A stretch of 64,000 bases of DNA, taken from assembly GCA_017994695.1 (NCBI GenBank), contig JAGOKF010000010.1, positions 230 to 64,229 on the forward strand, written 5' to 3'. Made by a program: the position numbers and the translations under genes. The DNA comes from Myxococcota bacterium. GTDB taxonomy: Bacteria > Myxococcota_A > UBA9042 > DTJE01. The notes beneath the pieces were generated by a model. It ran no database searches, had not been told where the DNA came from, and worked only from the letters and a program-made list of their open reading frames with translations. Within the stretch, counting starts at the first letter, position 1. Each line of letters opens with the position of its first letter. Shown here piece after piece: positions 11,002-61,175 of the stretch.

Positions 11002-11035
11002 GAGGCCTCCCTCTTTCGCCCTCAATCCTTGAAAG

Positions 11036-46120: not shown

Positions 46121-46280
46121 CCCGTTTCCCTCGCCGGTTCCGGTGCGAGTCTACACGGGAACGCCGCCGGCGCTCCATCCCCGGACCTTCCACCCGGGGC
46201 GATTGTGCCACTCTGGAAGCCGGCGTATCATCATGCCCCTGTTCGGTGGCCCCCTTCGGTTCGTTCGCAGGAGAGGACGG
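46121..46280. promoter_or_regulatory. Divergent promoter region (ABC exporter <-> cphA pair)
   Basis: 160-bp non-coding gap between divergently oriented first codons. Confidence 0.3.
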
Positions 46281-48410
46281 ATGAAGGTCTTGAGGGTGCG
46301 GGCGCTCCGGGGTCCCAACTTCTGGTCGCGACGGACCTGCATGGAAGCGCTGGTGGACCTGGAGGAACTCCGGGACGCCCCCAGCAACTCCCTGCCGGGA
46401 TTCAACGACCGCCTGCTGGCATGGCTGCCCTCCCTCGAGGAGCACCGCTGCGGCGTCGGGGAGCGGGGGGGATTCCTGATGCGGCTCCGGGAAGGGACCT
46501 GGATGGGCCACGTGCTGGAACACGTGGTGCTGGAACTCCAGAGCCTGGCCGGCACGCCGGTGGGCTTCGGGAAGACCCGGGAGACCTGCGTGCCGGGCAT
46601 CTACAAGGTCGCCTTCCGGTACCGGGACGAGACGGTGGCCCGGGCGGCCCTCCAGGCGGCCCTGGACCTCCTGAAGGCCGCCATCGAGGACCGCCCCTTC
46701 GACGTCCGGATGGTCATCGCGGACCTGCGGGACCAGGTGGACCGGCACTGGATCGGCCCCTCCACCCGGGCCATCGCCGAGGCGGCCGAGGCCCGGGACA
46801 TCCCCTGGCAGCGCCTCCATGACGGGAACCTGCTGCAACTGGGATACGGGGCGAAGGCGCGCCGGGTCTGGACCGCCGAGACCGACCGCACCTCGGCCAT
46901 CGCGGAGACCATCTCCCGGGACAAGCACCTGACCCGTTCCCTGCTGGCGGCGGCCGGCGTGCCGGTGCCTGAGGGACAGGTCGTCCGGAACGCCGAGGAG
47001 GCCTGGGAGGTCGCCTCGGAGGACATCGGCCTGCCGGTGGTGGTGAAGCCGGTGGACGGGAACCACGGCCGGGGCGTCTGCCTGGACCTCCGGACCCGGG
47101 AGGAGGTCTTCGAGGCCTGGCGACTGGCGGAACCCGAAGGGTCCGGGGTGATGGTGGAGCGTTTCGTCCCGGGCGTGGAGCACCGGCTGCTGGTGGTGGG
47201 ATCGAAGGTCCAGGCGGCCGTCCGGGGGGAGACCGCCTGGGTGGTCGGGGACGGGAAGTCCACGATCCAGCAGTTGATCGACGCCCAGTTGAACCGGGTC
47301 CCCTGGCGGGGAACCCACGAGGATGCGCCCTACAACCTGATCCGGCTCAGCGACGACCCGGTCTGCCTCTTCGACATCCGACGCCAGGGTCTCGAGGGCC
47401 CCGACTCGGTGCCCGCCGAAGGGCAGCGGGTCCTGGTCCAGCGGAACGGCAACGCCATCCACGACTGCACGGACCTGGTCCACCCGGAGGTGGCGGCGAC
47501 GGCCGTGCTGGCGGCCCGGGTGATCGGCCTGGACGTGGCCGGCATCGACCTGGTCGCCGAGGACATCTCCCGCCCCTTGCAGGAACAGCGGGGTGCCATC
47601 GTCGAGGTCAACGCCGGTCCCGGGCTCCTGATGCACCTGCGGCCGGCGACGGGAACTCCGCGCCCCGTCGGAGAGGCCATCGTCGAGCAGGTCTTCCCGA
47701 ACGGCCAGAACGGCCGGATCCCCCTGGCCTGCATCACGGGGAACCGCTGGCGCGCCCTGACGACCCGCATGGTGGAGAGCATCCTGGAATGGACGGGCCA
47801 GCGCCTGGGCGTCGCGGCCAGCGACGGCGTCCGGGTGGGGAAGAGGGTGCTGGACCCGTCCCCGAGGGCCGACGCCCTGGGGGCGCGCAAGGTGCTCCGG
47901 AATCCCCAGGTCGAAATCGCGCTGCTGGAGGCCGATCCCCTGGGCATCCTCCGGGAGGGGCTGGGCTTCGACCGGTGCCGAGTCGCCGTGGTGACCGACG
48001 TGGGGGATCCGGAAGGCCTCGAGGAGGAATCCATCCGGACCTCCGACGAGTTCTACGGCGTGCTGAGGTGCCCCGTGGACGTCGTGTCGGCGCTCGGATA
48101 CGCGGTGCTGAACGGGGAGGATCCCCAGGCGGCCGACATGGCCCGCCTGTCCGACGGAGGCGTCATCCTCTTCGCCCGGGATCCCGAGACGCCCTCCCTG
48201 CAGGATCACCGGAAGCGCGAAGGGCTGGCGGTCACGATCCGGGAGGGTCGCCTGGTGCTCTGGGACGAGTCGGAAACGGACCTCGGGGAGATCGGCCCCG
48301 GCGACCCGGTCCCGATCCTGGCCGCGGCAGCCACGGGATGGGCCCTGGGACTGGACCCGGAAACCATCCGGTCCGGTCTCCAACCCTGGATGCAGGAGGC
48401 GTCCCGATGA
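46281..48410 (+). CDS. cphA: Cyanophycin synthetase-like protein with degenerate Mur-ligase P-loop (CphA' / CphA2-like)
   Basis: N-terminus MKVLRVRALRGPNFWSRR matches the CphA hallmark. ATP-grasp region is present. The M-domain P-loop reads IPLACITGNRWRALTT instead of GTNGKTTT. 709 aa. Real start inside ORF 45915..48410. Confidence 0.75.
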   Translation: MKVLRVRALRGPNFWSRRTCMEALVDLEELRDAPSNSLPGFNDRLLAWLPSLEEHRCGVGERGGFLMRLREGTWMGHVLEHVVLELQSLAGTPVGFGKTRETCVPGIYKVAFRYRDETVARAALQAALDLLKAAIEDRPFDVRMVIADLRDQVDRHWIGPSTRAIAEAAEARDIPWQRLHDGNLLQLGYGAKARRVWTAETDRTSAIAETISRDKHLTRSLLAAAGVPVPEGQVVRNAEEAWEVASEDIGLPVVVKPVDGNHGRGVCLDLRTREEVFEAWRLAEPEGSGVMVERFVPGVEHRLLVVGSKVQAAVRGETAWVVGDGKSTIQQLIDAQLNRVPWRGTHEDAPYNLIRLSDDPVCLFDIRRQGLEGPDSVPAEGQRVLVQRNGNAIHDCTDLVHPEVAATAVLAARVIGLDVAGIDLVAEDISRPLQEQRGAIVEVNAGPGLLMHLRPATGTPRPVGEAIVEQVFPNGQNGRIPLACITGNRWRALTTRMVESILEWTGQRLGVAASDGVRVGKRVLDPSPRADALGARKVLRNPQVEIALLEADPLGILREGLGFDRCRVAVVTDVGDPEGLEEESIRTSDEFYGVLRCPVDVVSALGYAVLNGEDPQAADMARLSDGGVILFARDPETPSLQDHRKREGLAVTIREGRLVLWDESETDLGEIGPGDPVPILAAAATGWALGLDPETIRSGLQPWMQEASR

Positions 48411-51016
48411 AGGTGGAGCGCATCCGCTCCCTCCATGGACCCAACATCTGGTCCAGGCACCCCGTGATCGAGGCGATGGTCACGCTGGACCCCGACGAAC
48501 TCTCGGACGAACTTCCTCCCGGACTGGACGAGCACTGCCGGGAACTGCTGGCGGCGCTCGAAGGGACCAACGGAGGGACCGTCCTGCCCCGGACGCCGGC
48601 GCACCTGCTGGGACGGATCGCCCTGGGCCTGATGGTCCGCGCCGGGTGTCCGGTGTCGTTCTGCAAGGTGGTCCCGGCCAGGCCCGAGCGCACCTTCCGG
48701 GTGGTCGTGGAGTACGTGGACGAGGAGGTCGGGCTGCTGGCGCTGGAACTGGCCCGGAAGGCGTGCCAGGAGTGCGCGGAGGGACGGTTCCTGGACGTCA
48801 CCACGCTGGTGGAAGAGGTCCGGGACCTCGACGACCAGGTCCGACTGGGTCCGAGCACGGGGGCCATCGTCCGGGCCGCCAGGAAACGAGGCATCCCGGT
48901 CCAGCGCCTGACCCGCGGGAGCCTGGTGCGGCTGGGCTGGGGGGTGCGCCAGCGGCGGATCCTGGCCGCCGAGACGGACCGATCCCCGGCCATCGCCGAG
49001 GGCATCGCCCAGGACAAGCAACTGACGAAGGACCTGCTGGCCGCCGGGGGCGTCCCGGTCCCGGAAGGCCGCGCGGTGGAGACCCAGGAGGACGCCTGGA
49101 AGGCCGCCCTGGAGGTCGGCCTCCCGGTGGTCGTGAAGCCCCGGAATGGCAACCAGGGCAAGGGCGTCAGCGTCAACCTGTCCCGGCGGGAGGAGGTCGA
49201 GGAGGCCTTCCGGGCCGCCCGGGCCTTCGACGATTCGGTGCTGGTGGAGCAGTACGTCCAGGGGCGCGACTACCGGCTGCTGGTCGTCGGGAACCGGATG
49301 GTGGCCGCGGCGCGGCGGGACCCCCCGGTGGCCGTCGGGGACGGCGTACGGTCGGTGCGGGCCTTGGTGGAAAAGATCAACGCCGACCCGAGGCGACGGG
49401 AGGGCCATGCCTCGTCCCTGAGCCGGGTCCGCCTGGACGACATCGCCCTGGCGCTGCTGTCCCAGCAGGGACTCACTCCCGAATCGGTGCCCGACCCGGG
49501 CCAGGTGGTGGTGCTGCGGCGCAACGCAAACCTCAGCACGGGGGGAACGGCCACCGACGTCACCGACGAGGTCCACCCGGACGTCGCCGACCAGGCCGTC
49601 GAGGCGGCCCACATGATCGGCCTGGACGTCTGCGGGGTGGACATCATCGCTCCCCGGATCGACCGTCCCCTCCAGGAGACCCGGGGCGCCGTGGTGGAGG
49701 TCAACGCCGCTCCGGGCCTCCGCATGCACCTGGACCCGTCCTACGGGAAGGGCCGCCCGGTGGGCGAGGCCATCGTCTCCCTGCTGTTCGGCCCGGGCGA
49801 CGACGGGCGGATCCCCGTCGTGGCGGTTTCGGGAACCAACGGCAAGACGACCACCGTTCGGCTGATCACCCACGTGCTGGCGACCATGGGACGCACGGTG
49901 GGCATGACCTGCTCCGACGGCGTCTACGTCGGTCCAAGGAGACTGGACCACGGGGACTGCAGCGGACCCCGGAGCGCCCGGAACGTCCTGTCCCACCCGG
50001 ACGTCGAGGCGGCGGTGCTGGAAACGGCCCGGGGAGGCATCCTCCGGGAGGGCCTGGGTTTCGACTTCTGCGACGTGGCCGTGGTGACCAACGTCGGGCA
50101 GGGGGACCACCTGGGACTGGCGTTCATCGACAGCGTCGAGGACCTCGCGGTGGTGAAGCGGGTGATCGTCCAGGCCGTCGCCCCCCACGGAACCGCCGTG
50201 CTGAACGCGATGGATCCCCTGGTGGTCCGGATGGCCGATGCCTGCCGGGGATCGGTGCTGTTCTTCGCGATGGACCCGGGCCACCCGGTCCTGGACCGGC
50301 ACCGGACCAGGGACGGCCGGGCCCTGTTCCTGGACGGCAGGTCCCTGCGGGCGGTCCGGGGGGAGGACGACGAGATCGAGATTCCCCTGTCCCGCGTGCC
50401 CCTGACCCGGGACGGGCGGATCCCCTTCCAGGTCGAGAACGCGATGGCGGCGGTGGGCGCCTGCTGGGCCCTGGGCGTCCCCTGGGAGGTCATCCTCCAC
50501 GGACTGGAGACCTTCCGGAGCACGCCGGACATGGCCCCGGGACGCTTCAACTGGATGGAGTGGAACGGCGCCACGGTCATCGCCGACTACGGCCACAATC
50601 CCGACGCCATGGAGGCCCTCACCCGGGCCATCGAACACGTGCCGGCCGGGAAGCGGGTGATCGTGATCAGTGCCGCCGGGGACCGCCGCGATGCCGACAT
50701 CGTCCGCCAGGGACAGATCATCGGGGCCTTCTTCGACGAGGTGGTCCTGTACCAGGATCGCTGCCAGCGGGGCCGGGCCGACGGGGAGGTGATCGCCCTG
50801 CTGCGCCAGGGTCTCCAGGGATCCCCCCGGGCACGCATCGTCGCCGAGGTCCGGGGGGAGTTCCTGGCCATCGACACGGGGCTGTCCCGGCTGGCGCCGG
50901 GGGACGTGGGCCTGATCCTGGTGGACCAGGTCGAGGAGTCCCTGGCCTACCTGGGGCAGAAGATCCGGGACGCGAAGACGGAGCCGGCGACCGGCGAGGA
51001 CGACCCTCAGAGGTAG
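48407..51016 (+). CDS. cphA: Cyanophycin synthetase (full-length, ATP-grasp + MurE-like domains)
   Basis: MKVERIRSLHGPNIWSRHPVIEAMV N-terminus. Intact P-loop VSGTNGKTTT. 869 aa. ATGA overlap with upstream cphA-like stop. AGGAGG RBS. Confidence 0.85.
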   Translation: MKVERIRSLHGPNIWSRHPVIEAMVTLDPDELSDELPPGLDEHCRELLAALEGTNGGTVLPRTPAHLLGRIALGLMVRAGCPVSFCKVVPARPERTFRVVVEYVDEEVGLLALELARKACQECAEGRFLDVTTLVEEVRDLDDQVRLGPSTGAIVRAARKRGIPVQRLTRGSLVRLGWGVRQRRILAAETDRSPAIAEGIAQDKQLTKDLLAAGGVPVPEGRAVETQEDAWKAALEVGLPVVVKPRNGNQGKGVSVNLSRREEVEEAFRAARAFDDSVLVEQYVQGRDYRLLVVGNRMVAAARRDPPVAVGDGVRSVRALVEKINADPRRREGHASSLSRVRLDDIALALLSQQGLTPESVPDPGQVVVLRRNANLSTGGTATDVTDEVHPDVADQAVEAAHMIGLDVCGVDIIAPRIDRPLQETRGAVVEVNAAPGLRMHLDPSYGKGRPVGEAIVSLLFGPGDDGRIPVVAVSGTNGKTTTVRLITHVLATMGRTVGMTCSDGVYVGPRRLDHGDCSGPRSARNVLSHPDVEAAVLETARGGILREGLGFDFCDVAVVTNVGQGDHLGLAFIDSVEDLAVVKRVIVQAVAPHGTAVLNAMDPLVVRMADACRGSVLFFAMDPGHPVLDRHRTRDGRALFLDGRSLRAVRGEDDEIEIPLSRVPLTRDGRIPFQVENAMAAVGACWALGVPWEVILHGLETFRSTPDMAPGRFNWMEWNGATVIADYGHNPDAMEALTRAIEHVPAGKRVIVISAAGDRRDADIVRQGQIIGAFFDEVVLYQDRCQRGRADGEVIALLRQGLQGSPRARIVAEVRGEFLAIDTGLSRLAPGDVGLILVDQVEESLAYLGQKIRDAKTEPATGEDDPQR

Positions 51017-52266
51017 TGCCCGCCGGCCATCCGAAGCACGAATGGCTCCCGCGACAGCAGGCAGATTCGGAACCAGGACTCCCAGGCGATCCGCCCGGTC
51101 TCGGGGTCCTTCTGAAGATTCCCGTGGCAGCCGGTAGCCCCCAGGTCCTTGCAGCGGGCGAAGACTCCCGAGACCCCGCAGGACAGCGACGGGTCGATGC
51201 CCCGGGCCATCGCCTCGGCGTCCTCGTCCCCTGCGGGAAGGCAGATTTCGTAGAAATCGAAGCGATCGGGATTGTCCCGGGAAAACCCGATCCGCTCCAG
51301 GTCGCATTCCGGTCCATCGACCCGGATCAGGGCCTCCAGCCACTGGGTGGGATAGTCGGCACACTGGTAGGTGCCCGGCTGGATCGCGTAGGCGTTCAGC
51401 ACCCGGTAGAAGACGGCCCGGTTGGCCTCGTTTCGCCCCTCCTCGCCCCTGCGGAAGGTCATCGGCACCTCGCTGGAGGCGACTCCGCCGAAAGCCAGCA
51501 GTTCCACCGGCGGCAGGTTCCGCATCCCGCAGTCCCCCTCGACCGGGGGACAGGGGTCCGCGAGTCCCCGGGCCGTGGGCCACCAGATCGGGGTTTCCGG
51601 GATCGGGTACCAGGGGCCGTCCGTGTTCAGCGAAGAGGCAGAGTGGTAGAGGAACCGCGGCGTGCGGTTCCCGTCCCAGAGGACCAGCACCAGGTCCCGC
51701 CACCAGGGCACCTGCTGGGCCGCGTAGATCGTCACCGGATCCCCGACCTCGAAGGGCGGGCCCTGGTCCAGCGGCAGGTTCGTTTCGATGGTCACGGGGG
51801 ACCCGTCCTCCATCCGGAACACGTACCGGTGCCCGGACCGCGTCTCCTCCACCCTGGCAAGAGTGGCGGAGCCGAAGATCACCCCCTGGCCCCACGGAGG
51901 CATGGGGCTCCCTTCGGTGGGAAACCCGAAGACCTCGAAGTTCGCGTAGGTGGCCGGAGGAGGCTCCCGGCACTCGCCGGACCCCGTGTCCCATCCGCCG
52001 ACATCGACCGGGCCGTCCCCGCCGAGATCCATGCCCCCGACGTCCGTCGGGGCGGGATCGACCCCAGGATCCGGCGTTTCCCCAAGGTCCCGGAGGTCGA
52101 GGGACGGGTCCGTTCCCCCCTCGACCACGTCCCCGGGCGGGACGGGAACGTCCGGCTGGATCGCATCCTCCGGGATCCGGTGATCCCGGGAGGACCCGCC
52201 GGGTTCCAGCAGGCATCCAGCCACCAGCGCCAGGCACGGGACCAGGCTCCAGAGCCGCCGCGACAT
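51007..52266 (-). CDS. Lipoprotein, hypothetical
   Basis: Lipobox MSRRLWSLVPCLALVAGC. Acidic Pro/Asp-rich linker, then globular domain. Convergent 10-nt overlap with cphA. Confidence 0.55.
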   Translation of the reverse strand: MSRRLWSLVPCLALVAGCLLEPGGSSRDHRIPEDAIQPDVPVPPGDVVEGGTDPSLDLRDLGETPDPGVDPAPTDVGGMDLGGDGPVDVGGWDTGSGECREPPPATYANFEVFGFPTEGSPMPPWGQGVIFGSATLARVEETRSGHRYVFRMEDGSPVTIETNLPLDQGPPFEVGDPVTIYAAQQVPWWRDLVLVLWDGNRTPRFLYHSASSLNTDGPWYPIPETPIWWPTARGLADPCPPVEGDCGMRNLPPVELLAFGGVASSEVPMTFRRGEEGRNEANRAVFYRVLNAYAIQPGTYQCADYPTQWLEALIRVDGPECDLERIGFSRDNPDRFDFYEICLPAGDEDAEAMARGIDPSLSCGVSGVFARCKDLGATGCHGNLQKDPETGRIAWESWFRICLLSREPFVLRMAGGHYL

Positions 52267-52338
52267 GAGGTGCTCCGAGAAGGAGTACGGCGAAAGCATA
52301 GGATTTTCCGCGGAAGAATCGACCGGATGGCCGGGAAT

Positions 52339-52842
52339 TCAGAACGGGTCGAACCCGCCGCCGTCGAACAGGTCCCTGCGGAGGTCCTGGAACAGTTCCC
52401 GGAGCGTGTCGTAGTGCTGCCTCTCCCAGTCGGCCAGGAAGCGGTAGAAGTTCCGCACCTCCTCCTCGGCGGCCCCCTCGGCCTGCCCCTGGAACAGGGC
52501 GATGGCGTTGGACTCCAGCGTCAGGCCGATGGAGAGGGCCGAGACCTCGAAGGCGGCCTCCCGGGCCTGGGCCCGGAACCGGTCGGTCAGCACCCGGTCC
52601 ACGAAGGCCCGGGTCCCGGGATCGGACCGGGGAACCAGGAAGGCGGCGGCCCCCTCCCGGTCATGCCGCGCGGCGACGTCCTTCAGGAAGGCCTTGTGCT
52701 GGACCTCGTCCCGGGCCAGTTTCTCGAAGACCTCCCGGACCGCATCGTGGTCGGTCCGCTGGGCCACCATCGAGTAGAAGGCGAATCCGTCGTTCTCGAT
52801 CTGCCAGGCCCGGGACAGGATCTCGCGGATCTCCGGTCGCAT
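52339..52842 (-). CDS. Rubrerythrin/ferritin-like diiron domain protein
   Basis: Ferritin-like four-helix pattern with paired E..H motifs (ENDGFAFY...DEVQHKAF; ESNAIALF...WERQHYDTL). ATG 52840-52842 after AGGAGG. Confidence 0.6.
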   Translation of the reverse strand: MRPEIREILSRAWQIENDGFAFYSMVAQRTDHDAVREVFEKLARDEVQHKAFLKDVAARHDREGAAAFLVPRSDPGTRAFVDRVLTDRFRAQAREAAFEVSALSIGLTLESNAIALFQGQAEGAAEEEVRNFYRFLADWERQHYDTLRELFQDLRRDLFDGGGFDPF

Positions 52843-52873
52843 GGTCACCTCCTGTGGCAAGGCTCCCGCCCCA

Positions 52874-53335
52874 TCATCGTTCCCCGGTCATCCCGGATGC
52901 CGGGGGCTCGGCGGGTCGCACGGCGGCCGAGGGTTGCAGCCAGGCCAGCGCGCCGGTGGGACAGAACGGGACGCACCGGGGATCGCCGCCGCAGAGGTCG
53001 CACTTGGCGACCTCGTGCCTCCCCTCGTCCCAGTGCATGTTGCCGAAGGGACAGGCGGCGACGCACATCCGGCACCGGATGCAGGTCTCGTGGGAGACCT
53101 CGATGGCGCCGGTCCGGAGGTTCCAGGACAGGGCCCCGACCGGGCAGACGGCCAGGCAGGCCGCATCGTCGCACTGGAGGCACACCACCGGAGTCCCGGC
53201 CTCGGGCCCCCGTCGGAAGATGTGGATGCGGCTCTGGGCGGGCCGACCGTCGCTCCCGTGGGCGAAGGAGCAGGCCAGTTCACACTTCCCGCAAGCGATG
53301 CAGGACTGCGGCGTCACCCGGTAGATGCGATCCAT
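52874..53335 (-). CDS. 4Fe-4S dicluster ferredoxin-domain protein
   Basis: Multiple CxxCxxCxxxCP motifs (CIACGKCELAC, CLQCDDAACLAVCP, CIRCRMCVAACP, CDLCGG...CVPFCP). Confidence 0.8.
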   Translation of the reverse strand: MDRIYRVTPQSCIACGKCELACSFAHGSDGRPAQSRIHIFRRGPEAGTPVVCLQCDDAACLAVCPVGALSWNLRTGAIEVSHETCIRCRMCVAACPFGNMHWDEGRHEVAKCDLCGGDPRCVPFCPTGALAWLQPSAAVRPAEPPASGMTGER

Positions 53336-53378
53336 GGTTCTCCCCTCTGCTCTCCCCCCGGTCCCCGGTCGCCGACCT

Positions 53379-54158
53379 TCACGAAGCGGCGGACCCCTTC
53401 GGCCCCGATCCCAGCGTCACGGTGGCAGCGGCCATCTCCCGCCGCTTGCAGGCGTCGCAGACCTCGAACTCCTCCGGAGGCCATCCCATGCGCTTCCCGT
53501 ACCACTCCGCCTGGGCCTTCGTGATGTGGGCCCTTCCGCACCGGGGGCACCGGACCATCTCGAAGTCCCGGTTCCAGATCCGCCGACCCCCGGGACCCGA
53601 CTCGAAGCGGATGAACCCCGTGGGGCAGATCTCCGCGCAGGCAAGGCACCCGACGCAGGCCGCCGGGGGTTCGTGGAAGGGCGGCGCGACGACCCGGCCG
53701 GCTCCCCGGTCGGCGGTCCCGATGGCCGAGTGTCCCAGGCGGTCGCAGATCCGCACGCACAGGCCGCACAGGATGCAGTCCGTCGGGTCGGGGTTGGGCT
53801 CGTAGGAGGTCTTCTCGATGCCGTGTTCCCGGGCGAGACGCTGGATCAGCGGCGTCCGGGGGGAACGGGCCAGCAGGAGGTCCAGCACGACCTTCCGGGT
53901 CTCGACCACCCGCTCCGACCGCGTGTCCACGATCAGGCCGTCCTCCACGGGGTAGAGGCACGACACCACCATCTTCCGCCATCCGTCCCACTCGGGCCGG
54001 GTCACGTCCACCACGCAGAGACGGCACCCGCCGTAGGGCTCCACCGCTGGGTGTTCGCAGAGGGTCGGAACCGGCACTCCGGCCTGCCGGCAGGCCTGGA
54101 GCAGGAAGGTCCCCGCCGGGGCCTCCACGCGCCGTCCGTCAATGGTCAGCGTGGGCAT
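53379..54158 (-). CDS. NuoG/HoxU-like iron-sulfur subunit (N-terminal 2Fe-2S + 4Fe-4S clusters only)
   Basis: MPTLTIDGRRVEAPAGTFLLQACRQAGVPVPTLCEHP... typical of NuoG/HoxU N-terminus. 259 aa. No catalytic (molybdopterin or H-cluster) domain. Confidence 0.7.
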   Translation of the reverse strand: MPTLTIDGRRVEAPAGTFLLQACRQAGVPVPTLCEHPAVEPYGGCRLCVVDVTRPEWDGWRKMVVSCLYPVEDGLIVDTRSERVVETRKVVLDLLLARSPRTPLIQRLAREHGIEKTSYEPNPDPTDCILCGLCVRICDRLGHSAIGTADRGAGRVVAPPFHEPPAACVGCLACAEICPTGFIRFESGPGGRRIWNRDFEMVRCPRCGRAHITKAQAEWYGKRMGWPPEEFEVCDACKRREMAAATVTLGSGPKGSAAS

Positions 54159-56043
54159 GGCTCGCCTCCTCCTTCCCTCCGCCCCGGGGCAGGAACTCGA
54201 TGCAGTTCTCGGGGCAGACGTCGTAACAGGACCCGCAGGAAATGCACTTCTCGGACAGGATCCGGTGCTTCTGCCGGGGACGGCCCTCGATGGCCTCCAC
54301 GGGGCACGCCTTCGTGCACTGGTGGCAGCCGGTGCAGGGGTCCTCGACGATGCGGTAGATCGTCAGGTCCCGACAGATCCCCGCGGGGCAGGCCTTCCGT
54401 TCGATGTGGGCCTCGTACTCGTCCCGGAAGTAGCGCAGCGTGGACAGGACCGGGTTCGGGGCCGACTTGCCCAGTTCGCAGAGGCTCCCGAGCTGCATGC
54501 CCCGGGACAGGCGCTCGATCCGCTCGATGTCCCCCGGGCGCCCCCGCCCCTCGCAGAGGTCGTCGAAGATGCGGAGCATCTGCCGGAGCCCCTCCCGGCA
54601 GGGCACGCACTTCCCGCAGGACTCCTCAGACAGGAACTTCAGGAAGTACCGGGCCACGTCCACCATGCAGGTCCGGTCGTCCATCACGATCATGCCCCCG
54701 GACCCCATCATGCTGCCGTTCTCGGTCAGCACCTCGTAGTCCACGGGCAGGTCCAGCCGGTCGGCCGGCAGACACCCGCCGGACGGGCCTCCGGTCTGCA
54801 CCGCCTTGAAGGGCCGGTCCTTCAGGATGCCGCCGCCGATGTCGAAGATGATGCGCCGGAGCGATTCGCCCATCGGCAGTTCGATGAGCCCGGTGTTCTT
54901 GACCTTGCCCACCAGGGAGAAGGCCTTGGTGCCCTTCGACTTCGCCGTGCCGTACGCCGCGAACCACTCCCCGCCGTGGGCGAGGATCGCCCCCACGTCG
55001 GCCCAGGTCTCGACGTTGTTCAGCACCGTGGGCAGGTCGAACAGCCCCCGGTCGCTGGCATGGATGTACTTCGCCCGGGGCTCCCCGACCTTGCCCTCGA
55101 TGCTCCGCATCAGGGCCGAGGACTCGCCGCAGACGAAGGCGCCTCCCCCGCGGCTCACCCGGAGGTCGAAATCGAAGCCGCTGCCCAGGATGTCCCGGCC
55201 CAGGAGGCCCCGCTCCCGGGCGTCCTCGATGGCCTTCTGGACCTGGACCACCGCCAGGGGATACTCGTCCCGGACGTAGATGTAGCCTTCGTGGGCCCCC
55301 ACGGCGTAGGCCCCGATGATCATGCCCTCCAGCACGCTGTGGGGGTCCCCCTCGAGGATGCTCCGATCCTTGAAGGCCCCGGGATCCCCCTCGTCGCCGT
55401 TGCACAGGACGAATTTCCGGTCCCCCCGGGCCTTCCGGGCCGCCGCCCACTTCCGGGCCGTCGAGAATCCCGCCCCGCCCCGCCCCCGGAGCCCCGCCTT
55501 CCGGACCTCCTCGATGACCTCCTCCGGGGTCTTCTCGAAGAGGGCCTTCACCAGCCCTCCGTAGGCCCCCAGGGCCAGGGCATCGTCCAGGTCCCCGGGG
55601 TCCAGGCGACCGATGTGGCGCATCGCGATCCGGGTCTGGTGGCGGTAGAAGGGGATCTCCTCGTAGCGGGCCACCGGAGCCCGGGTGTTCGGGTCCCGGT
55701 AGAGCAGCCGCTCGACGACCTCTCCCTTGCGGATGGTCTTGTCCAGGATTTCAGGGACGTCCCTGGCCTGGACCCGGGTGTAGAGGATCCCCTCGGGCTG
55801 CACCACCACCAGCGGGCCCCGCTGGCAGAAGCCGTGGCACCCGGTCGTCTTCGTGTACACCCCCAGGCCCGCCTGGATCCCCTCGGACTCGATCCGCGAC
55901 CGGAAGGCCTCGGCCACCGCCGCCGACCCGTTGGCCAGGCACCCGGTGCCGCAGCAGACCCAGATGTCCCGGGTCCGGGCCTCCCGCCGGGCCCGGGCCT
56001 CCGCGACCACCTCCTCGAAGCGCTGCCTCGACTCGATCCGCAT
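54139..56043 (-). CDS. NuoF/HoxF-like NAD(H)-binding FMN flavoprotein subunit with N-terminal thioredoxin-like 2Fe-2S and C-terminal 2x4Fe-4S domains
   Basis: 51-kDa subunit motifs (GRGGAGFSTARKW, CNGDEGDPGAF, ESCGKCVPCREG). Extra Fd domains, as in HndC/HydB-type subunits. Confidence 0.8.
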   Translation of the reverse strand: MRIESRQRFEEVVAEARARREARTRDIWVCCGTGCLANGSAAVAEAFRSRIESEGIQAGLGVYTKTTGCHGFCQRGPLVVVQPEGILYTRVQARDVPEILDKTIRKGEVVERLLYRDPNTRAPVARYEEIPFYRHQTRIAMRHIGRLDPGDLDDALALGAYGGLVKALFEKTPEEVIEEVRKAGLRGRGGAGFSTARKWAAARKARGDRKFVLCNGDEGDPGAFKDRSILEGDPHSVLEGMIIGAYAVGAHEGYIYVRDEYPLAVVQVQKAIEDARERGLLGRDILGSGFDFDLRVSRGGGAFVCGESSALMRSIEGKVGEPRAKYIHASDRGLFDLPTVLNNVETWADVGAILAHGGEWFAAYGTAKSKGTKAFSLVGKVKNTGLIELPMGESLRRIIFDIGGGILKDRPFKAVQTGGPSGGCLPADRLDLPVDYEVLTENGSMMGSGGMIVMDDRTCMVDVARYFLKFLSEESCGKCVPCREGLRQMLRIFDDLCEGRGRPGDIERIERLSRGMQLGSLCELGKSAPNPVLSTLRYFRDEYEAHIERKACPAGICRDLTIYRIVEDPCTGCHQCTKACPVEAIEGRPRQKHRILSEKCISCGSCYDVCPENCIEFLPRGGGKEEASHAHADH

Positions 56044-56045
56044 GG

Positions 56046-56528
56046 CTACTCCTTGGGCTCCAGGTAGTCCCCCACGGAGGCGGGGCGCACGCCGCCGTGG
56101 TACCGGTCGTTGACGATCACCACCGGCGCCATCGCGCAGGCCCCGACGCAGTTCACGGTCTCCAGCGTGAACCCCAGGTCCGGCGTCGTCTCCCCCGGAC
56201 CGATGCCCAGGCGCCGGTGCACCTCGTCGATGATCTGGGGAGCCCCGCGGATGTGGCAGGCGGTCCCGGTGCAGACCTTGATCACCACCTTCCCCTTGGG
56301 GGTCAGACTGAAGGCCCGATAGAAGGTCGACACCTGGAAGACCTTCGACAGGGGAACGCCCAGTTCCGCGGCCACGCGTTCCAGAACCTCGCAGGGGAGG
56401 TAGCGGTAGGCCCGCTGCACGTCCTGGAGCACCTGGATCAGGGACGGCTCCTCCCGGGGATACCTCCGAAGGATGTCCTCCAGGGGGGCCATGTCCGTGC
56501 AGGCGACCGGTCGGGTGGAACTCTCCAT
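56046..56528 (-). CDS. NuoE/HoxE-like thioredoxin-fold 2Fe-2S subunit
   Basis: Cys ligands ...CTGTACH...CVGACAMAP. 160 aa. RBS GAGGGAGG. Confidence 0.75.
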   Translation of the reverse strand: MESSTRPVACTDMAPLEDILRRYPREEPSLIQVLQDVQRAYRYLPCEVLERVAAELGVPLSKVFQVSTFYRAFSLTPKGKVVIKVCTGTACHIRGAPQIIDEVHRRLGIGPGETTPDLGFTLETVNCVGACAMAPVVIVNDRYHGGVRPASVGDYLEPKE

Positions 56529-56542
56529 CGGTCCTGCCTCCC

Positions 56543-57118
56543 TCAAGCGCCCGGGGCCGCCGGGCGATCCCGTCCTTCCACGCACCGCCGCGCCTCGGCG
56601 TACCCGGCCTGGAGGCATTGGAGGTTCACGTCCACCAGGGCCGGCTTCCGGGCGAAGGTCTCCCGGACCAGGGCCTCCACCTGGGCCATCGGCACCACCT
56701 CCGTGGCCCCGACGAAGGCTCCCAGAGCCACCATGTTGGCGCCCTTCGGATTGCCCAGGGAGTTGGCCAGGTCGTTCGCGGCGACGGGCACCACCAGGAC
56801 GTCGGACCGGCGGCACTCCCGGTTCACCAGCGACGTGTTGTAGAGGATGACGCCCCCGGGACGCACCGCGTCCTCGAAGCGGTCCAGGGACGGCAGGTTC
56901 AGGGCCATCAGGGCCCGGGGCCGCTGGACCACCGGCGACCCGACGGGCCGGTCGGAGATCACCACCGTGCAGTTGGCCGTCCCGCCCCGCATCTCGGGGC
57001 CGTAGGATGGGAACCACGAAACCTCCCGGCCTTCCTTCATCCCGGCGTAGGCCAGCATCTTGCCGATCAGCAGGGCGCCCTGGCCTCCGAAACCCGCGAT
57101 GATCATCTCGTACTGCAT
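56543..57118 (-). CDS. 2-oxoacid:ferredoxin oxidoreductase gamma subunit
   Basis: MQYEMIIAGFGGQGALLIGKML hallmark of Por/Kor/Vor gamma. RBS AGGAGGGGA. Confidence 0.8.
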   Translation of the reverse strand: MQYEMIIAGFGGQGALLIGKMLAYAGMKEGREVSWFPSYGPEMRGGTANCTVVISDRPVGSPVVQRPRALMALNLPSLDRFEDAVRPGGVILYNTSLVNRECRRSDVLVVPVAANDLANSLGNPKGANMVALGAFVGATEVVPMAQVEALVRETFARKPALVDVNLQCLQAGYAEARRCVEGRDRPAAPGA

Positions 57119-57136
57119 CGGCCGTCCCCTCCTGCC

Positions 57137-57964
57137 TCACTCCCGTTCCAGGGGCCTCGGGGCCCGGTCCCCGCCGTCGGGCGTCTTGAAGACCCCCAGG
57201 GGGTAGTAGGGCACCATGTTCTTCTCGACCCAGTCGCAGGCCTCGTGAGGCGGGATCCCCCAGTTGGTCGGACAGGTCGAGAGGAGTTCCACCAGGCTGA
57301 AGCAGCGCCCCTCCTCCTGGAACCGGAAGGCCCGGCGAAGCAGCCGCCTGGCCTCGACCACGTGGAGAGGGGTGTGGACCGCCCCCCGGGCGATGAACGC
57401 GGGCGTCCGCAGGGCGCTGACCAGTTCCGCCACCCTCAAGGGATGTCCCGCCAGGGAGACGTCCCGCCCCAGGGGCGACGTGGTCGTCACCTGGCCGGGC
57501 ATCGTGGTGGGCGCCATCTGCCCGCCGGTCATCCCGTAGATGGCGTTGTTGACGAAGACCACGGTGACCTTCTCGCCCCGGTTGGCGCAGTGGAGGATCT
57601 CGCTGAGGCCGATGGAGGCCAGGTCCCCGTCGCCCTGGTAGGTGAAGACGACCAGGTCCGGTCGGGCCCGCTTGATGCCCGTGGCGACGGCCGGGGCACG
57701 CCCGTGGCTGGCTTCGTGCATGTCCGTGGCGAAGTAGTTGTAGGCCAGCACCGCGCAGCCGACCGGGGACACGCCGACGGTCCGCTCCCGGACTCCCAGT
57801 TCGTCCAGCACCTCGGCGATCATCCGGTGGATCACCCCGTGGGTGCATCCCGGACAGTAGTGGGTGATCACCTTCCGCAGGGACTCGGGGTGGCCGAAGG
57901 CCTTGGCCCGGGACCGTTCCGGCTCCCCTGCCCGGACCTCCTCCTGCACCACGGGACTAGACAT
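57137..57964 (-). CDS. 2-oxoacid:ferredoxin oxidoreductase beta subunit (TPP-binding)
   Basis: CPGCTHG and GDGD TPP motifs. ATG 57962-57964 overlaps alpha stop by 8 nt. Confidence 0.8.
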   Translation of the reverse strand: MSSPVVQEEVRAGEPERSRAKAFGHPESLRKVITHYCPGCTHGVIHRMIAEVLDELGVRERTVGVSPVGCAVLAYNYFATDMHEASHGRAPAVATGIKRARPDLVVFTYQGDGDLASIGLSEILHCANRGEKVTVVFVNNAIYGMTGGQMAPTTMPGQVTTTSPLGRDVSLAGHPLRVAELVSALRTPAFIARGAVHTPLHVVEARRLLRRAFRFQEEGRCFSLVELLSTCPTNWGIPPHEACDWVEKNMVPYYPLGVFKTPDGGDRAPRPLERE

Positions 57965-59045
57965 CCTCCACCTCCCGGGAACGCCCCTCCAGGACATCGA
58001 TCATGCGGGCCGCGGCCTCCTCGGGCGAGATCAGGTTGCCCCCGGTGCGCCCGTGGAAGTGGATCGGCCGGGACCGTCCCAGGGCCAGCCGGACGTCCTC
58101 CACCATCTGGCCCGCGGACAGTTCCAGCACCAGCACCGCCTTGGCCTTTTCCGCCGCCGCGGCCAGTTCCCCGTAGGGATAGGGAAAGAGGCTGATCGGT
58201 CGGAACAGCGCCACCCGACGCCCCTGGTCCCGCAACTCCTCGATGGCGCTCAGGGCGACCCGGGCCACGGTCCCGTAGGCCACCACCAGCAGGTCGCAGT
58301 CCCCGTCGTCGAAGCGCACCTGGAAGCGCCGTTCCCGTTCCCGGATCAGCCGGTACTTCTGCTGGAGGTTGCGGTTGTGCGCCTCCAGGGTGTCCGCGTC
58401 GAGGTAGAGGCTGTTGATCACCGCCCGGGGGCGATCCCCCTTCCATCCGGTCGAGGCCCAGGTCTTCGGAGGGAGGTCCGGAGCCGGGAGGCGCTCGTCC
58501 GGCAGTTCCACGGGCTCCATCATCTGGCCGATCAGGCCGTCGCCGAGGACCATCACGGGGGTGCGGTATCGGTCCGCGATGTCGAAGGCCTCCATCGTCA
58601 GGTCCGCCGCTTCCTGGACCGACCAGGGGCCCAGCACCGGCACCCGGTAGTCCCCGTGCCCTCCCCCCTTCGTGGCCTGCAGGTAGTCGGCCTGGGAGGG
58701 GAGGATCCCCCCGAGTCCCGGACCAGCCCGCATGATGTTCACGATCACCACCGGGAGTTCGGACCCGGCCATGTAGGAGACGGCCTCCTGCATCAGGCTG
58801 ATCCCCGGGCTGGACGAAGAGGTGAGGACCCTCACCCCGGCCCCCGAGGCCCCGTAGAGCATGTTCGAGGCGGCCACCTCCGACTCGGCCTGGACGTAGG
58901 TTCCTCCCACCTGGGGCAGCCGGTGGGACAGGTACTCGGGAATCTCGTTCTGGGGGGTGATGGGATAGCCGAAGAAGAGGCGGCACCCTGCTCGGATGGC
59001 CGCCTCCGCGATGGCCTCGGTCCCCTTCATCAGCTTTCTGGCCAT
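57957..59045 (-). CDS. 2-oxoacid:ferredoxin oxidoreductase alpha subunit
   Basis: MARKLMKGTEAIAEAAIRAGCRLFFGYPITPQNEI N-terminus typical of Por/Kor alpha. Confidence 0.8.
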   Translation of the reverse strand: MARKLMKGTEAIAEAAIRAGCRLFFGYPITPQNEIPEYLSHRLPQVGGTYVQAESEVAASNMLYGASGAGVRVLTSSSSPGISLMQEAVSYMAGSELPVVIVNIMRAGPGLGGILPSQADYLQATKGGGHGDYRVPVLGPWSVQEAADLTMEAFDIADRYRTPVMVLGDGLIGQMMEPVELPDERLPAPDLPPKTWASTGWKGDRPRAVINSLYLDADTLEAHNRNLQQKYRLIRERERRFQVRFDDGDCDLLVVAYGTVARVALSAIEELRDQGRRVALFRPISLFPYPYGELAAAAEKAKAVLVLELSAGQMVEDVRLALGRSRPIHFHGRTGGNLISPEEAAARMIDVLEGRSREVEDV

Positions 59046-59057
59046 GTCGGTTCGCCC

Positions 59058-59291
59058 TCAGTAGCGGAAGTAATGCACCAGCGTCCCGTTCACCTCCATC
59101 GAGAGGGCCACGTCGGGACAGGTGATGCAGCAGACGCGACACCCGATGCAGTGCCGCTGGCGGGCCACCTTCACGAAGAAGTAGCCCTTGGCGTTCAGGT
59201 CCCGGCCCATCTCCAGCACCTGCCGGGGACAGGCCCGGACACAGAGCTCGCATCCCTTGCAGCGATCCGGCTCCACGACGATCCGAGGCAT
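59058..59291 (-). CDS. 2-oxoacid:ferredoxin oxidoreductase delta subunit (2x4Fe-4S ferredoxin)
   Basis: 77 aa MPRIVVEPDRCKGCELCVRACP...CIGCRVCCITCP. RBS GGGAGGAGG 5 nt before ATG. Upstream part of ORF 59058..59471 is junk. Confidence 0.8.
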   Translation of the reverse strand: MPRIVVEPDRCKGCELCVRACPRQVLEMGRDLNAKGYFFVKVARQRHCIGCRVCCITCPDVALSMEVNGTLVHYFRY

Positions 59292-59325
59292 GTCGGCCTC
59301 CTCCCGGCCCCTTCGGGGGCTCCGT

Positions 59326-60042
59326 TCATCGCAACACGAACAGCGGCCCGGAACGGGGCACCCGGGGCCCGTCCACCGGGGGCTGGACGATCCGGTGCAG
59401 GGGAAGCACCTCGCAACCAGGGTCCCCGGGGCCCACCAGCGCATCCTCCCGTCCCGCCTCGACGCCGACACCGACCACCGGGACCCCCAGGGCCTCGGCG
59501 GTCCAGCGGGCCATCGACAGGCCCTCCTCGACCACCTCCCGGGTGGTCCGGTCCATCAGGTGGGTGTTCGAAAAGACCCCTGTCACCTTCAGGCGCGACA
59601 CCCGTTCGATTTCCCGGGCCATCGCCACGGCCGACTCGGGATCGGGGGTGAAGGGGCGGCGGAAGTTCACGACCAGCACCAGTTCATGATCCGCCGGCCG
59701 GAGGACGTCCGACAGCGCCCCCAGAATCCGGGCCCCGTTCTCGTCCCCCCCGACATCCATCACCACCCGCCCGGCATGGTCGGCGCAGATCGTCCGGACC
59801 CGGGGAAGCAGGATGGGAAGGTCCGCGGTGGCCAGGTCCCCTTCCGGGGCGACCAGGTCCACGCCCAGGCGGGCCAGCGTCGCCGCGGCTTCGCGGCTCC
59901 GGAAATAGGGCTTCACGACGTCCAGGTCCGCCAGCACCACCCGGTCCCCGGCCCGGGCCATCCCGATGGCGGCGTTGACGGCCACCTCGGTCTTCCCGCT
60001 CCCGAAGTGCCCGACCAGGATGGCGAGGGATTTCCGGAACAT
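59326..60042 (-). CDS. P-loop NTPase, uncharacterized (Walker A GHFGSGKT; SIMIBI-like)
   Basis: MFRKSLAILVGHFGSGKTEVAVNAAIGMARAGDRVVLADLD. 34 nt upstream of porD, same strand. Confidence 0.5.
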   Translation of the reverse strand: MFRKSLAILVGHFGSGKTEVAVNAAIGMARAGDRVVLADLDVVKPYFRSREAAATLARLGVDLVAPEGDLATADLPILLPRVRTICADHAGRVVMDVGGDENGARILGALSDVLRPADHELVLVVNFRRPFTPDPESAVAMAREIERVSRLKVTGVFSNTHLMDRTTREVVEEGLSMARWTAEALGVPVVGVGVEAGREDALVGPGDPGCEVLPLHRIVQPPVDGPRVPRSGPLFVLR

Positions 60043-60191
60043 GATCCTTCCCCGAGGCCAGGGGAAACATAGGCTGCCGCAAAAGGGGAAGTCAAGCGGA
60101 ACCCGGCTCCGCCCGGCCCGGTGGACCCCGGAAGGTCGGGTTTCGGAACCCCGCCGGTTCGGCTAGACTTCGACCGACGGCCGGAGGGTCC

Positions 60192-61175
60192 ATGGCACCC
60201 CGCGGGGCAGGTCCGGAAACCGGCAGGATGGGACGGGCGATCGGCCCCCGGGGACCGGTCGTGGTCCTGTGGCTTTTCCTCGCCACCTCCTGGGCCTGCG
60301 CCACCCCGCCGACGACGCTCCCGGTTCCCCGTCCCGTGCCCGCACCGGCCCCGGACTGCCGGCGTTCCTCCACGCGCCCCGCGGAGTTTCGATTCGGACT
60401 CCTGTCCGGCGTGGTTCGTTCGGGGCAGGACCTGGCAGGCCTGGAGTCCTGGATCACGTCGCGGATGGGCATCCCGGCCAGGATCGAGGTCCTCGAACGG
60501 TACGACGACCTGGGAAGTCGGATGCTCCAGGGAACCCTGGAAGCGGCGATGCTCCCGCCTCTGGAGTACGTTCGCACCCGGAGCCGCGACCCGTGCATCG
60601 GCGCCCGGCTGACCGCGGTGGTCAGCGGATCGGTGCGGTATTCCTCGTTCCTGGTGGCCCGGAAGGATTCCCGCATCCGGCGGCTTCAGGACCTCCGGGG
60701 AGCCCGGGGGGCCTTCGTGTCGCCGGACTCCGCCTCGGGCTGGCTCTTCGCGTTGCGACGGATGCAGGAGGCGGGCCTGGACCCCTGGAAGGACCTGGCG
60801 GAGGTCCGTTTCCTGGGCTCCCACGCCGCCGTCATCGAGGCGGTGATCCGCGGCGAGAGCGACCTGGGAGCGACCTTCGACGGGGCCCTTGTCGCCGCTC
60901 GCCAGGGTGGGTGGGACACTGCATCCCTCTCCCTGGTCGCCCTGGGGGGCCGTGTCCCCTTCGACGCCGTCGTGGTCTCTCCGGAGGTTCCCGAAGACCT
61001 GGCGAACCTGTTTCTGGGGGCACTGGCGGCCATCGACACCACGACCCCGGAAGGGCGATCGATCCTGTCGGTCCTGCCCAACTACAGCGGATTCGTCCCC
61101 ACCGACGACTCCTTCTACGACGACGTGCGGAGGGTCGCGGAGGAGGTCCTCATGGACTCGGGGAGGTCCCGGTGA
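60192..61175 (+). CDS. Periplasmic substrate-binding protein, PhnD/SsuA-like (phosphonate/phosphate ABC-type SBP fold)
   Basis: Signal peptide. PBP type-2 fold. GGAGGG RBS before ATG 60192 (alternative ATG 60228). Confidence 0.6.
   Translation: MAPRGAGPETGRMGRAIGPRGPVVVLWLFLATSWACATPPTTLPVPRPVPAPAPDCRRSSTRPAEFRFGLLSGVVRSGQDLAGLESWITSRMGIPARIEVLERYDDLGSRMLQGTLEAAMLPPLEYVRTRSRDPCIGARLTAVVSGSVRYSSFLVARKDSRIRRLQDLRGARGAFVSPDSASGWLFALRRMQEAGLDPWKDLAEVRFLGSHAAVIEAVIRGESDLGATFDGALVAARQGGWDTASLSLVALGGRVPFDAVVVSPEVPEDLANLFLGALAAIDTTTPEGRSILSVLPNYSGFVPTDDSFYDDVRRVAEEVLMDSGRSR

Follow-up and report, generated by a model that had tools for sequence, protein, structure and literature searches.

The bifurcating BfuABC enzyme family, formerly called HydABC, was defined by Schut et al. 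in 2022 (PMC9304861), and the non-bifurcating NuoF, HoxF and FdsB homologues lack its sites B2 to B5 (PMC9304861). Among the predictions of that work is Por-Bfu, a 2-oxoacid:ferredoxin oxidoreductase (OFOR) joined to a Bfu module, which is represented by 12 sequences from Dehalococcoides and syntrophic Proteobacteria, is co-expressed in D. mccartyi, and is uncharacterised (PMC9304861). No later characterisation or purification of Por-Bfu or OFOR-Bfu was found in the literature searched, which misses most subscription journals. In the WorABCSL complex, the C-terminal helix of WorA recruits the polyferredoxin WorS, bringing cluster S4 within 10.7 Å of A4, and electrons enter the bifurcating core along S4-A4-A2-A1 (PMC12318220). 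In Por-Bfu, the counterpart of WorA has the zinc finger without the C-terminal helix, and a WorS homologue is missing (PMC12318220). The locus considered here lies in a stretch of 64,000 nucleotides (nt) of Myxococcota DNA (contig JAGOKF010000010.1, positions 230 to 64,229 of the forward strand), referred to below as the window. It combines, in one ten-gene operon, an OFOR, a BfuABC core and a WorS-type polyferredoxin, which on balance would seem to form a single complex.

Real genes in the window, which has about 70% G+C, were picked by third-position GC and then by domain searches (Pfam, NCBIfam). Ten of them run head to tail on the minus strand over 52339-60042, with a P-loop nucleoside triphosphatase (NTPase) first and a di-iron protein last. 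In order of transcription, preceded by a putative promoter, and with lengths in amino acids (aa), the features are:

60066..60095, minus strand: sigma-70-like promoter match, TTGACT-18-TATGTT, putative (a consensus match only), upstream of the P-loop gene
59326..60042, minus strand: SIMIBI-class P-loop NTPase, 238 aa, with a Walker A motif and weak, below-cut-off CbiA/ParA Pfam matches
59058..59291, minus strand: OFOR delta, 77 aa, two [4Fe-4S] sites (Fer4 families; two CxxCxxCxxxCP motifs)
57957..59045, minus strand: OFOR alpha, 362 aa (POR_N and PFOR_II; YPITP motif)
57137..57964, minus strand: OFOR beta, 275 aa, with thiamine pyrophosphate (TPP) and [4Fe-4S] sites (TPP_enzyme_C; GDGD...NN and CPGC motifs)
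56543..57118, minus strand: OFOR gamma, 191 aa (Pfam POR, 6e-43)
56046..56519, minus strand: BfuC, NuoE/HydC-like, 157 aa, [2Fe-2S] cluster C1 (2Fe-2S_thioredx, 8.7e-50)
54139..56043, minus strand: BfuB, NuoF/HydB-like, 634 aa, with a flavin mononucleotide (FMN)/NAD(H) site and five metal sites (Complex1_51K, NADH_4Fe-4S)
53379..54158, minus strand: BfuA, NuoG-N-terminal/HoxU-like, Type 2, 259 aa, Fe-S sites only (WorA homology)
52874..53335, minus strand: WorS-type polyferredoxin, 153 aa, four [4Fe-4S] sites (four Cys motifs; WorS homology)
52339..52860, minus strand: rubrerythrin-family di-iron protein, 167-173 aa (Pfam Rubrerythrin, 1.9e-14)

A sequence-only reading of the window had listed porDABG, the NuoE/F/G-like genes, a polyferredoxin and a rubrerythrin-like gene, all of which were recovered with Pfam and NCBIfam on the minus strand. 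Its gap and overlap figures also agree with the measured junctions, which from the P-loop end are +34, +12, -8, +18, +23, +2, -20, +43 and +13 nt; the two overlaps are at alpha/beta (8 nt) and bfuB/bfuA, the NuoF/HoxU pair (20 nt), and the largest gap is 43 nt. The interval it gave, 52339-59291, holds for the genes listed but stops short of the conserved first gene of the operon, the P-loop NTPase at 59326-60042. When genes were called independently on a metagenome contig of a relative (L081; BfuB 93% identical), the same ten genes with matching lengths emerged. In the relative's gene call BfuC has 160 aa, and the start in the window may lie 9 nt further upstream; the di-iron protein probably starts at the ATG at 52842. 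The promoter-like site is the single one on the minus strand in 50800-60600, where 0.3 would be expected, and a terminator scan was uninformative, giving fewer matches than in shuffled sequences. Pfam searches of about 30 further genes revealed no hydrogenase, formate dehydrogenase, carbon monoxide dehydrogenase or WOR (AOR/WOR family) gene in the whole 64-kb window. The 10-kb flanks of the relatives are equally devoid of these genes, in keeping with the earlier remark that no such catalytic partner of the NuoEFG-like module lies between the genes.

How widely is this arrangement conserved? A search with BfuB over one genome per GTDB species returned 562 relatives, from which the 80 best loci were taken for comparison; these were chosen by likeness to one protein via a pattern-based scan, so that proportions among them are not population frequencies. 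An OFOR of the window type (alpha more than 45% identical) is present in 33 of the 80, and the full order P-loop-delta-alpha-beta-gamma-bfuC-bfuB-bfuA-polyferredoxin in about 30. The window-type loci span at least seven phyla, namely Myxococcota, Acidobacteriota (Thermoanaerobaculia, Holophagae), Methylomirabilota, Planctomycetota, Zixibacteria, Ignavibacteria and Calditrichota, and include unclassified genomes; every one of the roughly 30 derives from a metagenome-assembled genome. Most of the seeming gene absences are contig ends. In a neighbor-joining (NJ) tree of BfuB, the window-type, Smithella/Syntrophus and Firmicutes loci form three separate clades, the last of which has a polyferredoxin gene upstream and no OFOR. 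BfuB clade thus tracks partner type, which indicates that the flavoprotein co-evolves with its partner, as a physical complex predicts. (The BfuB proteins of two Planctomycetota loci, L047 and L054, branch apart from the main window-type clade.) The proposal that an OFOR is coupled here to an NAD(H)-linked, possibly bifurcating NuoEFG-like module has therefore gained computational support, from the synteny, the BfuB phylogeny and the cofactor sites.

The cofactor sites are most telling in BfuB. The extra ferredoxin-like domains previously ascribed to this NuoF-like protein are borne out by the domain search: besides Complex1_51K (2.8e-44) and NADH_4Fe-4S (3.7e-33), it has an additional N-terminal 2Fe-2S domain and two C-terminal Fer4 domains. 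Ligand conservation was assessed in an alignment of the window protein with its 120 closest homologues (121 sequences), using the ligand definitions in the supplement of PMC9304861. The N-terminal [2Fe-2S] ligands (C30/31, C35, C69, C73) are invariant, as are those of the N3-type [4Fe-4S] cluster B1 (C476, C479, C482, C522), of B3 (C570, C573, C576, C580) and of B4 (C600, C603, C606, C610). At the B2/Zn site (C459, H546, C552, C557) the only departure is at C459, conserved in 120 of the 121. The ligands of the extra sites align to 9mqx_B and 7t2r_B. Among PDB chains the best match of BfuB is 9mqx_B (WorB, 5e-235), followed by NiFe-HydB, three FeFe-HydB and NfnB, with NuoF of complex I far behind and covering the central domain only. 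BfuC likewise matches 9mqx_C best (4.7e-44), then HydC chains, and contains the motifs CTGTAC and CVGAC. As judged from sequence, BfuABC has every cofactor ligand that defines the bifurcating Bfu family.

One residue of BfuB might have indicated a different cluster. C497 occupies the place that in the [2Fe-2S] site of A. mobile NiFe-HydB is taken by C476, the fifth B2 ligand; Cys stands here in 5 of the 121 close homologues and Val in 95. A [2Fe-2S] cluster at B2, as in NiFe-HydB, was consequently rejected, and the B2 of this family is most likely a four-ligand Zn-type site. C497 may be incidental, or may mark a cluster/Zn switch at B2.

If the core is that of a Bfu enzyme, the connection between the core and the OFOR is presumably to be sought in BfuA and the polyferredoxin. 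BfuA was correctly described as a NuoG/HoxU-like protein with Fe-S clusters only. All 16 of its Cys are invariant in 38 sequences, including the A1 [2Fe-2S] ligands (Cys 34, 45, 48 and 67) and two CxxCxxCxxxC motifs. The His-ligated A3 motif is absent (the position reads 'LLLARSP'), as is the A5 domain, and by these features the protein is assigned to Type 2, with A1, A2 and A4 present and A3 and A5 absent. Its best PDB chain is 9mqx_A (WorA; 2.5e-61), over residues 4-244 and covering both halves of the zinc finger, and the same chain is the top Foldseek match of its AlphaFold2 (AF2) model. The zinc finger itself (C204, C207, C234, C237; CxxC...CxxC) is invariant in the 38 closest homologues, as are K238 and R239, with L249 nearly so. 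BfuA runs for another 22 aa past the finger, and the AF2 model has a helix at 235-250 with a predicted local distance difference test score (pLDDT) of 82-89. In a subset of the window-type loci, among the more distant ones, all four zinc-finger Cys are replaced and the extension is kept (L007, L009-L012, L014, L015, L026, L032, L035, L044, L050 and L057), one such C-terminus reading 'LRDPGTGDAV...ETSDRSKR'. The finger thus seems dispensable for this architecture.

The polyferredoxin is the counterpart of WorS. Its best PDB chain is 9mqx_E (WorS; 4.4e-37), over residues 1-136 and including all 16 Cys, with AorA and the small subunit of WOR5 coming after it. It had been taken for a ferredoxin; an Fe-S protein it is, but homology makes it a WorS-type connector subunit rather than a free ferredoxin. 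Across the 80 loci, a BfuA extended at its C-terminus and a WorS homologue are nearly always found in the same locus. Window-type and Firmicutes-type loci have both, except L047, L054 and possibly L057, in which the extension is present and the polyferredoxin undetectable. The Smithella-type loci have neither, and their BfuA stops with the zinc finger, at '...C..CR' (for example '...CTECR*'). The polyferredoxin also resembles the N-terminal domain of PadI (4.5e-30), the beta subunit of NAD-dependent phenylglyoxylate dehydrogenase, where such a domain and the TPP domain of OFOR beta form one protein; a Rosetta-stone fusion of this kind supports contact between polyferredoxin and OFOR.

The OFOR module has all the parts of its superfamily: alpha with domains I and II, beta with TPP, gamma with domain III, and delta with two [4Fe-4S] clusters. 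In gene order (delta-alpha-beta-gamma) and by homology it is Oor/Kor-like. The hints as to its substrate disagree. The alpha subunit passes the NCBIfam subfamily model NF005507 'VorB' (511.8 bits against a cut-off of 399), and all substrate-specific equivalog NCBIfam models score below cut-off on the OFOR subunits, those for Oor/Kor far below. The best NCBIfam matches of delta are OorD and OGOR_delta, both below cut-off. The nearest solved chains are, for alpha, 1yd7 (P. furiosus), 8ys5 (2-oxoglutarate synthase alpha) and 6n2n (MmOGOR), and for beta, 6n2n_B, 8ys5_C and 5b46_B; these enzymes act on 2-oxoglutarate or have broad specificity, and the scores amount to only 90-190 bits. Genome context is weak and conflicting, and the literature on 'vorB', when searched, was of no help with the substrate.

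Two further genes frame the operon. The P-loop gene stands first in the window-type loci of several phyla, at 39-59% identity, and its Walker A residues G11-K17 and the aspartates D39/D41 are invariant. Its Pfam matches to CbiA/ParA are weak and below cut-off; no NCBIfam model matches, and a PDB sequence search gave only E > 0.08. Nearly all of its 2707 homologues are annotated as 'hypothetical', mostly without Pfam domains. The AF2 model (pLDDT 88) has signal recognition particle GTPases as its best Foldseek folds, at a template modeling (TM) score of about 0.5. Neither sequence nor fold search yields a family narrower than the generic SIMIBI fold. Many SIMIBI proteins are metallocentre assembly factors. 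By analogy, a role in assembly or maturation is a reasonable suggestion; it had been voiced before, and the strict conservation of the gene within the block lends it support, with the fold search adding nothing beyond the generic class.

The last gene is a different case. The di-iron protein belongs to the rubrerythrin family, as had been supposed (Pfam Rubrerythrin at 54.7 bits, the cut-off being 22.8), with a complete four-helix-bundle ligand pattern (E, ExxH, E, ExxH). Over 17 sequences, each of the ligands E22, E52, H55, E116, E146 and H149 either never varies or does so at most once. However, a rubredoxin-type FeCys4 domain is absent, the sequence containing no Cys at all, and the only PDB relatives are 2fzf and TM1526, both ferritin-like and uncharacterised. 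The gene follows that of the polyferredoxin in the window and 16 other loci, all from Acidobacteriota and some Myxococcota, and is missing from the Myxococcales locus L001. By sequence and distribution, it is a lineage-specific add-on and not a canonical rubrerythrin. In L021 (Zixibacteria), another ferritin-/rubrerythrin-like open reading frame (ORF) of 175 aa with ExxH motifs (5140-5667) lies just upstream of the P-loop gene and shows no similarity to the window protein at E < 0.01. Recruitment of a di-iron protein to the cluster may have happened on separate occasions.

Taken as a whole, the locus is read here, with somewhat better than even confidence, as encoding one complex, in which the OFOR is joined through the WorS-type polyferredoxin to BfuABC, and the electrons from 2-oxoacid oxidation are split between NAD+ and ferredoxin in a reversible manner. 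A 2-oxoacid would be oxidatively decarboxylated with coenzyme A (CoA) at the TPP site of alpha and beta. The electrons would then pass through the [4Fe-4S] cluster of beta, the two of delta and the four of the polyferredoxin, which would be docked on the C-terminal helix of BfuA. Within BfuA they would move from the ferredoxin-type A4 to A2 and the [2Fe-2S] cluster A1, to arrive at the FMN/B1/B5/C1 centre of BfuB-BfuC. The four electrons of two turnovers would be split there, a hydride going to NAD+ and two low-potential electrons via B3/B4 to free ferredoxin (Fd). The predicted net reaction is 2 oxoacid + 2 CoA + NAD+ + 2 Fd(ox) -> 2 acyl-CoA + 2 CO2 + NADH + 2 Fd(red), and it is expected to run in both directions. 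The P-loop NTPase would be a dedicated assembly or maturation factor, and the di-iron protein an oxidative-stress accessory in some lineages.

Several observations weigh against this assignment. The first is thermodynamic: the couples of OFORs, near -500 mV, have roughly the same potential as ferredoxin (PMC9304861), and with such a donor the usual reason to bifurcate is gone. Schut et al. counter this with a low-substrate-concentration argument only (PMC9304861). Bfu-type clusters are moreover necessary for bifurcation and not proof of it, and in the literature searched, OFOR-Bfu enzymes are known only from the 2022 prediction and one remark in 2025. Other observations bear on the wiring. Docking of the polyferredoxin on the OFOR is proposed by analogy. 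A nanowire helix like that of WorS seems not to be conserved, the tail of the window polyferredoxin ('PSAAVRPAEPPASGMTGER') being Pro-rich; elsewhere, Acidobacteriota share 'VPAxxAAxxPEPL', and the protein stops after the last cluster motif in Planctomycetota and some Zixibacteria. Since a nanowire tail helix is not evident, a single bridging copy of the polyferredoxin is the conservative expectation. Residues 125-161 of the AF2 model of BfuA are of low confidence, and against WorA the model attains a TM-score of just 0.43 because, free of cofactors, it packs poorly. Finally, L047 and L054 (Planctomycetota/Brocadiia) have the OFOR and BfuCBA with neither a P-loop nor a polyferredoxin gene detectable.

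Why bifurcate at all with such a donor? The same complex could be a non-bifurcating, NAD+-reducing 2-oxoacid oxidoreductase, with BfuABC as a plain diaphorase, in the manner of phenylglyoxylate:NAD+ oxidoreductase or AorABC. With a donor at about -500 mV, direct reduction of NAD+ would be strongly exergonic without any coupling (PMC9304861, Table 1), and polyferredoxin domains of the WorS type do occur in NAD-linked OFOR and WOR systems, as shown by the PadI match and by AorABC (PMC12318220). This alternative is nevertheless unlikely. The characterised non-bifurcating homologues lack B2-B5 (PMC9304861), all of which are present in the window BfuB, and the conservation of these sites over 121 sequences (C459 in 120) argues that they are used. 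Furthermore, the closest solved relatives are all bifurcating enzymes.

Alternatively, the enzyme might run chiefly in reverse, as a confurcating 2-oxoacid synthase in which NADH and reduced ferredoxin together drive the carboxylation of acyl-CoA for anaplerosis, amino-acid synthesis or a route resembling the reductive tricarboxylic acid (rTCA) cycle. Pyruvate synthesis from NADH and ferredoxin was proposed for Por-Bfu by Schut et al. (PMC9304861), the nearest solved OFOR relatives include 2-oxoglutarate synthases, and a gene the size of a citrate synthase or citryl-CoA lyase adjoins the cluster in seven FCB-group loci. On the other hand, NADH (about -280 mV) and ferredoxin (about -500 mV) combined are less reducing than ferredoxin alone, so that strong removal of the product would be needed. 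The citrate-synthase-like neighbor is limited to one related group of phyla, and the phosphotransacetylase and acetate kinase genes about 5 kb away in L081 fit an oxidative, ATP-yielding direction better. As a main direction of catalysis, synthesis is quite improbable.

That the operon encodes two enzymes, a plain OFOR and a separate BfuABC-polyferredoxin(-di-iron) module that reduces, for example, peroxide or oxygen like Rub-Bfu (a predicted Bfu type), has in its favor the rubrerythrin-family gene at the operon end in the window and 16 relatives, and a delta ferredoxin domain with which the OFOR could itself reduce free ferredoxin, but is very improbable in view of the absence of the di-iron gene from L001 and from most phyla that keep the OFOR-BfuCBA-polyferredoxin block, the way in which BfuB clades track OFOR type, the continuation of 2-23 nt gaps and overlaps across the OFOR/Bfu boundary, and the differences from published Rub-Bfu, which has no BfuA, and from true rubrerythrins, whose rubredoxin domain the di-iron protein lacks. 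As a true third-substrate module of the Rub-Bfu kind, the di-iron protein was rejected as a general explanation, the gene being lineage-restricted.

The genes around the operon add little on substrate or pathway. No flanking gene outside the block is conserved across phyla. The commonest flanking gene encodes a sigma-54-type regulator (8 loci), followed by the citrate-synthase-like ORF of the seven FCB-group loci. The latter (about 255 aa, the size of citryl-CoA lyase) occurs with a lipoprotein-like ORF about 1 kb from the cluster in Zixibacteria, Ignavibacteria and Calditrichota, at 14077-14844 in L021, 873-1643 in L029, 4169-4936 in L032, 4223-4999 in L044 and 4278-5051 in L050, and also in L052 and L067. 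It may reflect a link to the TCA or rTCA cycle, or merely inherited local synteny. In L081, the closest relative, phosphotransacetylase and acetate kinase are encoded at 1-1756, at a distance of 4-6 kb from the cluster on its P-loop side; the matching position would fall just outside the window. These neighbors are compatible with an acyl-CoA product used for ATP synthesis. As a clue to pathway or substrate, however, the flanks were set aside as too weak, phosphotransacetylase and acetate kinase being near the cluster only in this one relative.

In the window itself, the two flanks are unrelated to the operon: a divergent phosphonate-binding protein gene and a HAMP-GGDEF gene on one side, and on the other a 430-aa ORF without a Pfam match and two convergent cyanophycin-synthetase-like genes. 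The 430-aa ORF (51007-52299, minus strand) has a lipoprotein-like N-terminus, lies on the same strand 39 nt after the operon, and is kept only in L081 (431 aa). The tandem genes at 45915-48410 (plus strand; N-terminal Cyanophycin_syn domain and ATP-grasp only) and 48413-51016 (plus strand; ATP-grasp with Mur-ligase M and C domains) also occur as a pair in L081, and may represent a split or two-component cyanophycin synthetase. Further away, and apparently unrelated to the operon, are an XdhC-family accessory gene with no molybdoenzyme nearby (10207-11025), a gene for a 1202-aa TIG-domain protein (11036-14644) and a B12-binding radical SAM gene (22643-24568), all on the minus strand.

What would follow if the one-complex reading is correct? 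OFORs hold a central place in anaerobic carbon metabolism and in the fixation of CO2; their electron exchange is normally thought to involve only ferredoxin or flavodoxin. If they are hard-wired to NAD(H) in these organisms, the redox balances of Acidobacteriota, Myxococcota, Planctomycetota, Zixibacteria, Ignavibacteria and others would have to be redrawn. The strongest version of the proposal, in which a second, independently assembled OFOR-Bfu class with its own SIMIBI NTPase is present in at least seven phyla and carries out genuine bifurcation or confurcation with a couple as low as ferredoxin, is tentative and somewhat less than an even bet. If true, Bfu chemistry would reach a donor that has no thermodynamic 'need' of bifurcation, and many non-fermentative anaerobes and microaerophiles would gain either an NADH-yielding oxidation of 2-oxoacids or an NADH-subsidised, CO2-fixing carboxylation. 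Current annotations of the genes are 'VorB', 'NuoF' and 'bidirectional hydrogenase diaphorase', behind which lies an abundant, uncharacterised Bfu class with thousands of metagenome homologues. The conserved, unannotated NTPase may be needed for the heterologous expression of such complexes.

How, then, does the locus compare with known systems? It shares with Por-Bfu the four OFOR subunit genes beside bfuC-bfuB-bfuA in one operon, a Type 2 BfuA with a zinc-finger motif, and a proposed reaction that links a 2-oxoacid, NAD(H) and ferredoxin. It differs from published Por-Bfu in having a BfuA extension with a predicted helix and a WorS homologue directly after it, and this connector architecture contradicts the published statement that Por-Bfu has no WorS-type wire. 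The Smithella locus L042, on the other hand, matches the Por-Bfu description of PMC12318220 exactly, with the order fumarase, gamma, delta (92 aa), alpha (391 aa), beta (317 aa), bfuC, bfuB and bfuA (237 aa). The window OFOR is only 24-28% identical to the Smithella type, and differs in gene order (delta-alpha-beta-gamma against gamma-delta-alpha-beta) and subunit sizes. The P-loop and polyferredoxin genes, both present in the window, are absent from Smithella-type loci even at relaxed thresholds. The two types of BfuB fall in separate NJ clades; no Dehalococcoides locus was compared, so that the comparison with that branch of Por-Bfu is indirect.

The known NAD-linked and ferredoxin-linked OFORs are similar in parts. 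Phenylglyoxylate dehydrogenase, PadEFGHI of Azoarcus/Aromatoleum (NCBIfam NF0457xx), is an OFOR-type enzyme that passes electrons to NAD+, and the N-terminal polyferredoxin domain of PadI, fused to the TPP domain, is homologous to the window protein; the Pad models nevertheless score far below cut-offs on the window proteins. The NAD module of PadEFGHI is a different flavoprotein without a BfuBC core, and the enzyme is not known to bifurcate. OorDABC/KorDABC has the gene order D-A-B-C in common with the window, and OorD is the best NCBIfam match of delta, yet all the equivalog models fall far short and only 'VorB' NF005507 passes.

WorABCSL, the bifurcating tungsten aldehyde oxidoreductase of Acetomicrobium mobile (PDB 9MQX, PMC12318220), is the closest solved relative of BfuA, BfuB, BfuC and the polyferredoxin, and its logic recurs in the window: a catalytic module feeds a subunit with four [4Fe-4S] clusters, which would feed A4, A2 and A1 and finally the bifurcating BC core. 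The catalytic module is the tungstopterin protein WorL in the one case and a TPP/Fe-S OFOR in the other, there being no AOR/WOR gene. The C-terminal helix of WorS, which builds the (WorSL)3 nanowire, is not evident in the window polyferredoxin, and the window-type cluster has in addition a gene for a conserved NTPase and, in certain lineages, one for a di-iron protein. The general idea of an OFOR coupled to BfuABC is already published as a prediction (PMC9304861). In the literature searched, an architecture that unites an Oor-like OFOR with a WorS-type wire, a WorA-type helix and an NTPase of its own is undescribed, and by sequence comparison the locus is best described as a second joining of an OFOR to a Wor-type Bfu core, apparently independent of that of the Smithella type.

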